From a virus (lineage: Duplodnaviria > Heunggongvirae > Uroviricota > Caudoviricetes): DNA of 14,557 bases. Positions 4,613-13,167 of this stretch are shown here, one piece after another. Made by a program: the position numbers and the translations under genes. The notes under the pieces were generated by a model. The model did not search any database, was not told the origin of the DNA, and saw only the letters and a program-made list of their open reading frames with translations. Every line of letters begins with the position of its first letter. Position 1 is the first letter of the stretch. The stretch is taken from IMG/VR virus record IMGVR_UViG_3300012347_000256; one strand, written 5' to 3'.

Positions 4613-5147
4613 CTTTAAATCCACTTTCCAGAAGTTCTGCAGGAATGCAATTAGACAGATCATTGGATTCAAAACCAATTGGTTTCATGATCTTATCATT
4701 CCAGTTCTTGATTACAAATAGTTCGTATTCTGAGTTGTAATGCACATCCACAAGCACACCATCTTCTTCATACATTTGTGCAGTTTGAATCGCAGTGTAT
4801 TCTTTTGATGGAAACTTAGTGAGATTATTATAAGCTGTATCACGCATGGCTTTATTAACGTCCACACCAAGATGTTCTAGCTTTTGCATCAAACCCAATG
4901 CAGTAACCATTACATCAATAACACCGTCAAGTGTTTCTTTTACATCGTTCTTGTCGATACCTTTTTCTTTAATTTCTTTGGTTTCTTCTAAGATAAGTTT
5001 ATATTGAAAATCAATATCTTTTAAAGAAGTCTTGTTGTGCTTACCTGCAATCTCGTTGAAAGCGTAACAATCCATTTGAAAGTCACTGATGTTGTAGGTC
5101 ATATCGTTCATATCGTTCATATCATTCCAAGTGTTTGTGTCGTTCAT
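4605..5147 (-). CDS. MazG-like / PRA-PH-like all-alpha NTP pyrophosphohydrolase
   Basis: LILEETKE...ETLDGVIDV acidic metal motif, NNLTKF and KIMKP.GF. Start at 5147 after RBS AAAAGGA. Confidence 0.82.
   Translation of the reverse strand: MNDTNTWNDMNDMNDMTYNISDFQMDCYAFNEIAGKHNKTSLKDIDFQYKLILEETKEIKEKGIDKNDVKETLDGVIDVMVTALGLMQKLEHLGVDVNKAMRDTAYNNLTKFPSKEYTAIQTAQMYEEDGVLVDVHYNSEYELFVIKNWNDKIMKPIGFESNDLSNCIPAELLESGFKDE
5100..5126. repeat. 9-bp tandem repeat encoding ND-MND-MND-M
   Basis: CATATCGTT x2 followed by CATATCATT. Confidence 0.85.
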
Positions 5148-5148
5148 A

Positions 5149-5310
5149 TTAATCCTTTTTAAATTGCTTGATTTCTTTGAAAGTATAAAGTGCGTCATCT
5201 GCTGCGTCTTCAATATAAGCTAACAAAAACGCTGGTAGTGCTATAAGCCATACGATAAAGACAATGAATTTCATATTGTGGTTAACTAACCATTTTACCC
5301 AAGGTTGCAT
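5149..5310 (-). CDS. Small membrane protein, 53 aa (not in ORF track)
   Basis: MQPWVKWLVNHNMKFIVFIVWLIALPAFLLAYIEDAADDALYTFKEIKQFKKD*. RBS GAAAGGG; one hydrophobic segment. Confidence 0.7.
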   Translation of the reverse strand: MQPWVKWLVNHNMKFIVFIVWLIALPAFLLAYIEDAADDALYTFKEIKQFKKD

Positions 5311-11499: not shown

Positions 11500-12312
11500 T
11501 CACTCCTTTAGTAAAATTTGTTTAACATTTTCAACTTTTGCAGCATTAAACATATCTAAGACTTCTAGATAATTATCAATTGCGTAAGAACGAAACCAAC
11601 CTGAACATAGTGTAGTACAAATCTTGTTGACTGACTTGTAAAACGCTAGTTTAGCTGGTGTACTCCAATCAGTAGGTACTAAAAACCTTTCAGTTGAAAT
11701 AACGTAAGCTTCTTCTGCAATGCATTTAAGCTTGTCTGCATGACTTAGATTGTACCACAGATTTTTATCACACCACGCTAACTTTGAATCTTTTTGTAGT
11801 TTTTTATACAAAGGCTCTTCGTGATAAGCAAACAACTCGTGCAAGTAATCATGATTGTACTTCTTAGTCACAGCGTCATCAAAGAAATTTTCTACCGTTT
11901 GCATCAAGTTTGGATTACCTTGTGGGTAAGCTTGCATTGTAAGCTTGATGCGCTTGTTTAACACTTCTTCATCCTTGTCAGTAAAGAACTGCCGATATGT
12001 CTTTAAATGCATATTATATTGCATCATGTGCTTTTCAAACTTACGATCACGCCATAGGTGACTGCGCTTTACGATAGCAAGACCAATTGGGTTAACCACA
12101 TGCACTCTTTGACCTGCGATTTCAATCCAATGATTACTTGCGTAGTTCAACAGATCATAGTTACCAATCTGATCGAATGTATGCCATTCAATACGCTTTG
12201 TATCTGCAGTAATCTTATGTTCACTGATAACGTCCCAATCTGCATCTGGCTTTGCTTTAAAGGTAGCACTCCAGTATTGCAACGCTTGTGAGCCGATCAA
12301 AAGATTTTTCAT
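11500..12312 (-). CDS. Putative nucleotidyltransferase-fold protein (270 aa)
   Basis: N-terminal LIGS...DWDV resembles the Pol-beta hG[GS]..DhD signature; also HDYLHE. Confidence 0.55.
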   Translation of the reverse strand: MKNLLIGSQALQYWSATFKAKPDADWDVISEHKITADTKRIEWHTFDQIGNYDLLNYASNHWIEIAGQRVHVVNPIGLAIVKRSHLWRDRKFEKHMMQYNMHLKTYRQFFTDKDEEVLNKRIKLTMQAYPQGNPNLMQTVENFFDDAVTKKYNHDYLHELFAYHEEPLYKKLQKDSKLAWCDKNLWYNLSHADKLKCIAEEAYVISTERFLVPTDWSTPAKLAFYKSVNKICTTLCSGWFRSYAIDNYLEVLDMFNAAKVENVKQILLKE

Positions 12313-12523: not shown

Positions 12524-12599
12524 TGGTGCGACAGGATGGAATTGAACCACCGACCAAGGCTTTATGAGAACCCTGCTCTCACCACTGAGCTACTGTCGC
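12524..12599 (-). tRNA. tRNA with CAU anticodon (Ile2 slightly favoured over elongator Met)
   Basis: 76-nt cloverleaf GCGACAG-TA-GCTC-AGTGGTGA-GAGC-A-GGGTT-CTCATAA-AGCCT-TGGTC-GGTGG-TTCAATT-CCATC-CTGTCGC-A-CCA. G27.U43, the variable loop UGGUC and the D-arm resemble E. coli tRNA-Ile2. Confidence 0.93.
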
Positions 12600-12601
12600 A
12601 A

Positions 12602-12720
12602 GTTATAGTTCAGTATATTCCGTATCTTAGTTCCTCGTCATGCTTTAGTTCACATGCGTCATAAAACCCAAATAGTAAACCACGTTCGTTTACCCAACCT
12701 GAAATATACTGAACTATAAC
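12602..12720 (-). ncRNA. Candidate structured RNA closed by an 18-20 bp terminal stem
   Basis: Perfect 18-bp inverted repeat at 12602-12619 and 12703-12720, with internal hairpins; ends 2 nt from the tRNA 5' end. Confidence 0.5.
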
Positions 12721-12769
12721 CACTGGTCCCTAAACCAGTATTATAGTGTCTTTTGTATCTTGGACGACA

Positions 12770-12897
12770 ATCCTCATGCTGGAAATCCTGAAGTACAGCG
12801 CAACTTGTACTGCATTTTTAATGACGGGACTTACACCCGCCTCGCTGGAAGTTTGCCGCTAACTCTAGGGATTTGAGCAACAGGCATCAGCGGGACT
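12770..12897 (-). ncRNA. Candidate structured RNA of three hairpins, one with a T-loop-like motif
   Basis: Stems CCGCTGA/TTAGCGG, GGCGGG-TGTAAGT-CCCGTC and TGCAGTACA/TGTACTTCA; lies between two tRNA genes. Confidence 0.4.
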
Positions 12898-12904
12898 ATT
12901 TATA

Positions 12905-12983
12905 TGGTGCGAGTGATAGGATTCGAACCTACATTGACTCCATTACGGTACTACGCTTTAGAAGAGCGTTCCGGTACACTCGC
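12905..12983 (-). tRNA. Atypical D-armless tRNA-Arg(UCU)-like RNA with encoded CCA
   Basis: 79 nt: GCGAGTG-TACCGGA-ACGCT-CTTCTAA-AGCGT-AGTACCGTAATGGAGTCAAT-GTAGG-TTCGAAT-CCTAT-CACTCGC-A-CCA. Confidence 0.8.
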
Positions 12984-12992
12984 TTAACCTTA

Positions 12993-13022
12993 ATTATACA
13001 TCATTTTCTACATCTGTGTCAA
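12993..13022 (-). promoter_or_regulatory. Sigma70 promoter driving the RNA cluster
   Basis: Minus strand TTGACA-N18-TATAAT; the -10 ends 9 nt before the first tRNA base. Confidence 0.85.
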
Positions 13023-13167
13023 CAACTCGCAAAATATTTTCTTTGATGTTCAATCTAGCTAACTTGTTCAGATCAGACTGAGGCATCTGCATACAAGCTC
13101 TAAGCATACCATCTTTATACTGTTCTAAAGTATTGCGTTCTTTATTATACTTATAAATGTAGCTCAT
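12994..13167 (-). CDS. Hypothetical protein (57 aa)
   Basis: Start MSYIYK at 13167 after GGAGG; the longer ORF-track version overlaps the upstream gene. Confidence 0.65.
   Translation of the reverse strand: MSYIYKYNKERNTLEQYKDGMLRACMQMPQSDLNKLARLNIKENILRVVDTDVENDV

Follow-up and report, generated by a model that had tools for sequence, protein, structure and literature searches.

A phage tRNA-Arg(UCU) gene with a predicted non-cloverleaf layout in which the D-arm segments are rearranged around the anticodon arm

The stretch of DNA analyzed here, called the window, is the 14,557-nucleotide (nt) IMG/VR virus record IMGVR_UViG_3300012347_000256, assigned to the Caudoviricetes. Its minus strand carries, at 12983-12905, a 79-nt gene that resembles a transfer RNA (tRNA) for arginine with the anticodon UCU and whose parts are listed in Table 1. 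A preliminary description of this gene had pointed to a perfect 7-base-pair (bp) acceptor stem, A73, an encoded CCA, a canonical T-arm, a UCU anticodon arm, a 7-nt connector and a 20-nt stretch between the anticodon arm and the T-arm, and all of these are present. A D hairpin is absent: only 7 nt separate the acceptor stem from the anticodon stem, which leaves no space for one. The 20-nt stretch is made of AGUA, CCG and UAAUGGAGUCAAU. The minimum-free-energy fold of the window copy gives this same structure, with a long-range helix formed between the connector and the CCG that follows the anticodon arm. We refer to this layout as rewired. A promoter with consensus hexamers, also proposed in the preliminary description, was found upstream: TTGACA-N18-TATAAT at 13022-12993 (minus strand) matches the consensus at 12/12 positions, which makes it a putative promoter by motif match only. 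The copy of the gene in Pseudomonas phage PAK_P2 is likewise promoter-proximal.

Standard tools treat this gene poorly. The Rfam tRNA model RF00005 gives 44.4 bits on the window copy (cut-off 29), compared with 60-76 bits on normal tRNAs, and this score derives from the acceptor, anticodon and T parts only. The corresponding alignment deletes 11 D-arm positions and inserts 17 nt in the variable region. As expected in the preliminary description, ARAGORN makes no call at 12983-12905 and calls only the neighbouring tRNA-Met(CAU) at 12599-12524. The window copy shares with class I cloverleaf tRNAs the acceptor stem with discriminator and CCA, the anticodon arm with U33 and a purine at 37, and the T-arm with a GUUCRANYC-type loop, but lacks the D-arm hairpin between positions 9 and 26.

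Table 1. Parts of the rewired tRNA-Arg(UCU) gene and its putative promoter in the window, and contigs in which a tRNA-repair-type gene adjoins a rewired gene (positions refer to the window unless a contig is named)
Feature	Position	Strand	Remark
-35 hexamer TTGACA, sigma-70-type	13017..13022	-	motif match only
-10 hexamer TATAAT	12993..12998	-	motif match only; 9 nt (12992-12984) to the first tRNA base
Acceptor stem, 5' strand GCGAGUG	12977..12983	-	pairs with 12915-12909
Connector UACCGGA	12970..12976	-	CGG 12973-12971 is the 5' strand of the long-range helix
Anticodon arm ACGCU-CUUCUAA-AGCGU	12953..12969	-	5-bp stem, 7-nt loop; anticodon UCU 12962-12960
Linker AGUA	12949..12952	-	AG invariant (like 44-45), then 1-2 variable bases
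CCG	12946..12948	-	3' strand of the long-range helix; candidate equivalent of D-stem 10-12
D-loop-like 13-nt segment UAAUGGAGUCAAU	12933..12945	-	directly after CCG, before the T-arm
T-arm GUAGG-UUCGAAU-CCUAU	12916..12932	-	canonical T-loop
Acceptor stem, 3' strand CACUCGC	12915-12909	-	7 bp with the 5' strand
Discriminator A; encoded CCA	12908; 12907-12905	-	read from sequence
RNA ligase or metallophosphoesterase neighbour, contig L129	3696-4808		
RNA ligase or metallophosphoesterase neighbour, contig L130	3507-5216		
RNA ligase or metallophosphoesterase neighbour, contig L132	578-2929		
RNA ligase or metallophosphoesterase neighbour, contig L134	1881-2696		

Viral contigs, metagenomes and species genomes were scanned for the pattern, and 108 instances of this layout with 76 distinct sequences passed a structural filter. 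The filter demanded that the acceptor, anticodon and T stems pair but placed no condition on the connector or on what follows the anticodon arm; neither the long-range helix nor the 15:48-type pair described below was part of it. All counts of pairs and bases given from here on refer to a MAFFT alignment of 75 distinct homologs. Among cultured phages, BLAST detected an unannotated copy in Limnohabitans phage DC31 (93.7% over the 79-mer), which is the window's closest relative. Further copies occur in the Pseudomonas phages PAK_P2, JG003 and phiPsa397 and in the vB_PpuM group, and mycobacteriophage Wildcat has a more distant one. The gene also lacks annotation in PAK_P2, phiPsa397, Amme-3 and Wildcat. 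A match in Pectobacterium phage Bobbio was excluded from the family as an ordinary type II tRNA-Ser. The preliminary description had named a normal D-arm in close homologs as evidence against its reading; DC31, PAK_P2, phiPsa397 and Amme-3 all keep the rewired layout, and none of them has a normal D-arm. Among the virus records searched, the one nearest to the window is without the gene, but this record is only a 35%-complete fragment.

A covariance model of the family, R1, separates its members (82-96 bits) from ordinary tRNAs (at most 30 bits). The window copy scores 95.3 bits, but it belongs to the R1 seed. ARAGORN misses 106 of the 107 family loci in the 628 kb searched.

Our results showed that the pairing between the connector and the displaced CCG, as the preliminary description had put it, is a property of the whole family. 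The long-range helix joins C-N-N of the connector with N'-N'-G after the anticodon arm and is paired in 225/225 cells, in six complementary versions. Its first pair is an invariant C-G, the second is GC in 34 sequences, AU in 24 and UA in 17, and the third is CG in 40, GC in 30, UG in 3 and AU in 2; the window combines CGG with CCG. A further pair covaries between the purine of the D-loop-like segment and the last base before the T-stem, which is U if the purine is A and C if it is G (AU 73, GC 2, no violation). Judged from the alignment, this A:U to G:C switching is the behaviour of the R15:Y48 Levitt pair. The conventional stems show the same kind of support, with compensatory changes at 6/7 pairs of the acceptor stem and covariation at 5/5 pairs of both the anticodon stem and the T-stem. 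Over all 21 pairs, 99.4% are paired, compared with 66% in shuffles. When mutual information was computed with the average product correction, the top ranks held only the four stems and the long-range helix, and this search gave no tertiary covariation other than the 15:48 pair and the helices already listed. An indel at 47/52 that correlates with a substitution was also seen, a link that may be phylogenetic. Covariation, the absence of which had likewise been named as evidence against the proposal, is thus present.

The family motif consists of the connector U-A-C-C-N-N-A, the sequence U-A-R-N(1-2)-G-G-A after the helix and a Y before the T-stem; the window has both the connector and the downstream parts. 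Every connector has U, A, C, C and the final A, while changes at its two middle bases are matched by changes at those equivalent to 12948-12947. The D-loop-like segment has an invariant UA, GGA and penultimate A, with 1-2 variable bases before GG, the same number as in real D-loops. Its GG is conserved together with the UUCGAAU T-loop, and a canonical T-loop is kept across the family. The UAR-N-GGA motif follows the helix in all 75 homologs. The claim that there is no D-arm and that the D-loop lies 3' of the anticodon arm holds. The anticodon loop is CUUCUAA in 56/75 and CUUCUAC in 19/75, CCA is encoded in 60/75, and the discriminator varies (G 38, A 34, U 3). The linker after the anticodon arm varies (AGUA, AGCA, AGAA, AGA, AGUC and others). 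That the gene is a maintained molecule and not debris, another point of the preliminary description, agrees with the 75 distinct homologs that share one layout, a degree of recurrence far greater than chance would give.

As read from these sequences, the layout is an exchange of block 10-21 and block 22-45 of the cloverleaf, that is, an internal circular permutation of 10-47. The connector would then be U8, A9, C-C-N-N as 22-25 and A26. After the anticodon arm the order would be A-G 44-45, 1-2 variable bases, N'-N'-G as 10-12, U13, A14, R15, Y16(17), G18, G19 and A20, and so on to Y48; in the window, UAAUGGAGUCAAU would be read as U13, A14, A15, U16, G18, G19 and A20, onward to U48. The mapping made in the preliminary description stands for the D-stem and the D-loop. 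Its reading of the UA before CCG as a displaced U8-A9 does not, since the linker varies and the invariant U8-A9 stays in the connector.

In such a molecule, the D-stem would be a 3-bp helix that encloses and extends the anticodon arm, and the D-loop would follow this helix and run directly into the T-arm. Within the usual tRNA geometry, position 9 lies in the groove at 12-23, position 45 contacts 10-25 and position 21 stacks next to 48. The L-shape could be kept because the new joins connect spatial neighbours. It would be held by U8/A14, by R15:Y48, by the contact of G18-G19 with the T-loop and by the D-stem stacked on the anticodon stem. The layout may have originated when the inner segment was duplicated in tandem and the outer copies were then lost.

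The bacterial arginine identity set comprises A/G73, A20, C35 and U/G36 (PMC9976931). The window holds A73, an A after GG, C35 and U36. All family members have the A after GG, C35 and U36, and 72/75 carry A or G as discriminator. The A after GG would sit in the spatial place of A20. By every sequence criterion, the rewired gene is thus an arginine tRNA, and the host arginyl-tRNA synthetase (ArgRS) would charge its RNA through A20, C35, U36 and A/G73. A scan in which the anticodon was left free returned UCU at 24/24 loci and no other anticodon with the main motif. Intermediate scores with R1 came only from further arginine genes of this or a closely related layout. One of them, on contig L209, is a rewired tRNA-Arg(ACG) with 69.8 bits.

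Three observations concern variants of the layout. Contig L007 carries a 93-nt Arg(ACG) gene (5137-5229, minus strand; 35.7 bits with R1). Its connector is UAUCCCC, and an additional hairpin of some 20 nt separates the D-loop-like motif from the T-arm; the gene may be a long-variable-arm form of the rewired family. The Wildcat copy is an unannotated rewired tRNA-Arg(CCU) within a tRNA array (L010 394-466, record 61151-61223; 58.8 bits with R1); its anticodon loop is CCCCUAC and CCA is not encoded. Finally, genome G121, from the same bacterial family as the genome G002 described below, has two tandem rewired-like arginine genes, also picked up by R1, with the anticodons UCG and GCG (L291, about 1410-1575). 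The UCG gene shows a further layout variant, with a complete D-like hairpin CAG-UUAACCGGA-CUG after the anticodon arm and no enclosing helix.

The rewired gene lies within phage tRNA arrays; on contig L175 it stands between the Phe and Arg(ACG) genes among 18 tRNAs. A canonical UCU tRNA accompanies it in only 3/107 loci (ARAGORN, 628 kb). It is the sole arginine tRNA of the complete DC31 genome, which has 37.6% G+C and uses AGA for 33% of its arginine codons; the window has 37.7% G+C and uses AGA for 25%. The gene would be transcribed from the consensus promoter 9 nt upstream and the transcript trimmed at both ends. The resulting tRNA is predicted to read AGA and, probably, AGG, and would supply an AGA decoder to an AT-rich phage.

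An RNA ligase (phrog_968 or phrog_24030, E down to 1e-95) or a metallophosphoesterase adjoins the rewired gene in several phage-type contigs (Table 1). Both are enzymes of the tRNA-repair type, and the three ligase cases (L129, L130 and L132) may represent a single lineage.

The scan of species genomes returned 7 matches in 185,579 genomes, against about 100 viral and metagenome loci. Five of the 7 lie on short AT-rich contigs with phage-type genes (RNA ligase, homing endonucleases, phosphoesterase). The other two lie on a 1.28-Mb and a 331-kb contig of the Actinomycetota metagenome-assembled genomes (MAGs) G002 and G003, next to genes for an ABC transporter, a rhodanese, a DUF2017 protein, tRNA-His and a GDSL lipase. 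The rewired family is therefore not strictly viral. Over 20 kb around the gene, G002 and G003 are collinear, with 83-87% identity on both sides and 68-69% G+C. Because the flanks are collinear and have the G+C content of the host, the gene is chromosomal and inherited, with no adjacent insertion.

For the tRNA inventory of G002 and G003, all 45 and 44 Rfam tRNA matches, respectively, were taken. ARAGORN found 43 tRNAs in each, covering all 20 amino acids in G002 and giving no Tyr call in G003. The arginine anticodons of both genomes are ACG, CCG and CCU, and the sole UCU gene is the rewired one. AGA codons are present in Pfam-confirmed genes of the locus. tRNAs with C34 cannot read AGA, so these cells would depend on the rewired gene for this codon. 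Among 151 sampled genomes of the same bacterial family, 117 contain the flanks and 2 contain the rewired gene; of 19 syntenic loci of relatives taken for comparison, 10 carry a canonical tRNA-Arg(UCU). One of these canonical genes (L298, 2767-2840) lies exactly between the same flank blocks as the rewired gene. The two share an identical acceptor stem and the same end of the anticodon stem with a C31.U39 mismatch, and differ in the core. Such a one-for-one replacement of a normal UCU gene argues strongly for a true, working AGA decoder and against a decoy. Among the functions suggested in the preliminary description, AGA decoding is thus backed by the replacement in bacterial chromosomes, while the decoy function and nuclease resistance found no direct support.

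Taken together, these data make it very probable that the gene encodes a working arginine tRNA with the anticodon UCU and a non-cloverleaf secondary structure. We also consider it likely that the family is a second natural tRNA architecture in bacterial cytosolic translation, with the order 9 / 22-45 / 10-21 / 48 and still L-shaped, which arose in phages or spread via them, became the norm for several tRNA-Arg isoacceptors and, in at least one bacterial lineage, displaced the canonical tRNA-Arg(UCU) entirely.

Several points weigh against this interpretation. The mapping of positions 8-48 and the proposed L-shape draw on known tRNA geometry rather than on a model. The pairing percentages of the three conventional stems are inflated, as the pattern filter partly selected them, and the window copy folds with an unremarkable free-energy z-score (-1.5). 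Contigs from four metatranscriptome runs span the region and include relatives of the tRNA with 10 differences; such contigs cannot give the ends, strand or level of the RNA, and DNA carry-over is possible. The Wildcat copy has C33 instead of the near-universal U33, so not every member need decode well. Lastly, G002 and G003 are MAGs, and a canonical UCU gene on an unassembled piece is conceivable, though the shared chromosomal slot makes that unlikely.

One refinement keeps the working decoder and adds that its rewired core escapes D-arm-based recognition or cutting of tRNA-Arg, be it by a host anticodon nuclease, by another tRNA-targeting defence or by the phage's own attack on host tRNAs. 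The overwhelming bias of the layout towards phages, apparent from the genome counts above, is consistent with such an escape, as is its restriction to one amino acid over several anticodons. Phage tRNAs can counteract defences that cleave tRNAs (PMC11555353), and an RNA ligase of the tRNA-repair type adjoins the gene in one phage lineage (L129, L130 and L132). However, that ligase link may stem from this lineage alone, and the window contains no linked nuclease or defence gene, the neighbours being replication genes and a DUF7275 protein. Known anticodon nucleases target the anticodon loop, which is unaltered here, and two free-living bacteria have the layout as an ordinary chromosomal gene, where no arms race is needed. 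We therefore regard the escape function as possible but rather unlikely.

A non-decoding tRNA mimic, with tRNA-like ends but no use on the ribosome, could serve as a decoy for a nuclease or another enzyme, as a regulator or as a primer. The rejection of the gene by standard finders fits such a mimic. Against it stand the strong conservation of the anticodon loop, U33, A37, C35-U36, A20 and the A/G discriminator, and the fact that the gene fills the otherwise vacant UCU slot of near-complete phage tRNA sets. It is also the sole UCU tRNA, in an orthologous slot, of two bacterial genomes that use AGA. Because a decoy could not replace an essential decoder, we find the mimic improbable.

A D-armless tRNA with a local variable-arm hairpin CCG-UAA-UGG and no long-range pairing, or a decaying pseudogene or assembly error, is very improbable indeed. 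Taken by itself, the window sequence allows CCG to pair with UGG, and GUACCG is directly repeated in the connector and after the anticodon arm. However, this repeat is not conserved, and the hairpin is paired in only 72% of cells with no double changes, its first pair being broken in 43/75. Many phage groups show the same layout, in isolates and assemblies that are independent of one another and with every stem carrying compensatory changes, which rules out decay, a single-lineage accident or an assembly artefact.

Among known systems, the ordinary tRNA-Arg(UCU) is the closest functional relative of the proposed rewired decoder. Canonical examples (L298 2767-2840; L209 5411-5483) share with it the acceptor length, the discriminator, CCA, the T-arm, the loop CUUCUAA, the identity bases and the arginine-type D-loop motif A-A-Y-G-G-A. 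They differ from the rewired gene in its D-stem strands, which flank the anticodon arm, in its D-loop, which comes after that arm, and in the replacement of the 5-nt variable loop that ordinary tRNAs have.

The closest structural precedent is the D-armless mitochondrial tRNA-Ser. The metazoan mitochondrial tRNA-Ser(AGY/GCU) is also without a D hairpin (PMC9427863; PMC4013460). It has a short connector that pairs 3' of the anticodon stem, giving an extended anticodon stem as in the rewired family, but its whole tertiary core is lost (PMC9427863). The rewired family, unlike the mitochondrial tRNA, keeps the D-loop motif, G18-G19, R15:Y48 and a canonical T-loop, in a bacterial cytosolic setting. 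It does not show the lost D-loop/T-loop core and degenerate T-loop of the mitochondrial type.

Soma et al. reportedly described, in 2007, circularly permuted tRNA genes in the red alga Cyanidioschyzon merolae. The 3' half of these genes is said to precede the 5' half, and processing via a circular intermediate is said to restore a normal cloverleaf. The rewired gene likewise has a non-standard segment order that can be described as a circular permutation. It differs from the C. merolae type in that its acceptor strands are in normal order and only the internal 10-47 is permuted. There is also no sign that processing restores the usual order, and the mature rewired RNA would be non-cloverleaf.

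An engineered tRNA of evolved Escherichia coli, mini HisT, is also without a D hairpin and functions with a bacterial synthetase, EF-Tu and the ribosome (PMC11551756). The E. coli translation machinery accepts such a fully D-arm-less tRNA without adaptation (PMC11551756). Mini HisT is artificial, has no D-loop at all, has a predicted Y shape and withstood degradation only with a pnp mutation (PMC11551756), whereas the rewired family is natural and widespread and appears to keep the D-loop and the core contacts in a new order.

In textbooks, as in recent primary papers, all bacterial tRNAs are cloverleaves; a 2024 study regarded variation in arm size as the full structural diversity of cytosolic tRNAs and natural armless tRNAs as exclusively mitochondrial (PMC11551756). 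Our full-text literature search, the coverage of which excludes most subscription journals, returned no description of the rewired layout. If the proposed structure is correct, RNase P, ArgRS, EF-Tu and the ribosome can all work with a connectivity other than the cloverleaf. A natural tRNA with all core contacts but another chain order, acting as the only decoder of a codon in a cell, would change the textbook view. Current tRNA finders would also systematically under-count the tRNA sets of phages and of a few cells, and because of this blind spot in annotation, phage tRNA repertoires and arguments from codon usage would be biased for arginine. With the rewired tRNA one could further test what the machines of processing, charging and decoding require of tRNA connectivity, and it would be a possible scaffold for orthogonal or nuclease-resistant tRNAs.

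Other features of the window lie close to the gene. Between the rewired tRNA-Arg and tRNA-Met(CAU), the minus strand contains two conserved structured RNA domains without open reading frames (12896-12601). Their consensus fold, from five homologs, has 72 pairs, 13 of them with compensatory changes, and the second domain (12721-12601) is closed by a 21-bp stem. Covariation is also seen in a hairpin at 12738-12722, of which there are four versions; its loop GGGAC could possibly pair with GUCCC near 12895 as a pseudoknot. Over 12560-13060, an Rfam E-value search gave two tRNA matches only, the others being at chance level. Two metatranscriptome runs yielded a separate 184-nt contig (12725-12908) with a depth about 2x that of its flanks, a weak hint at a stable RNA. 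The first protein gene after this RNA cluster (11500-12312, minus strand) encodes a DUF7275 protein (PF23940, 181 bits; phrog_2141); two small genes that are paralogs of each other (phrog_8206) come after it.
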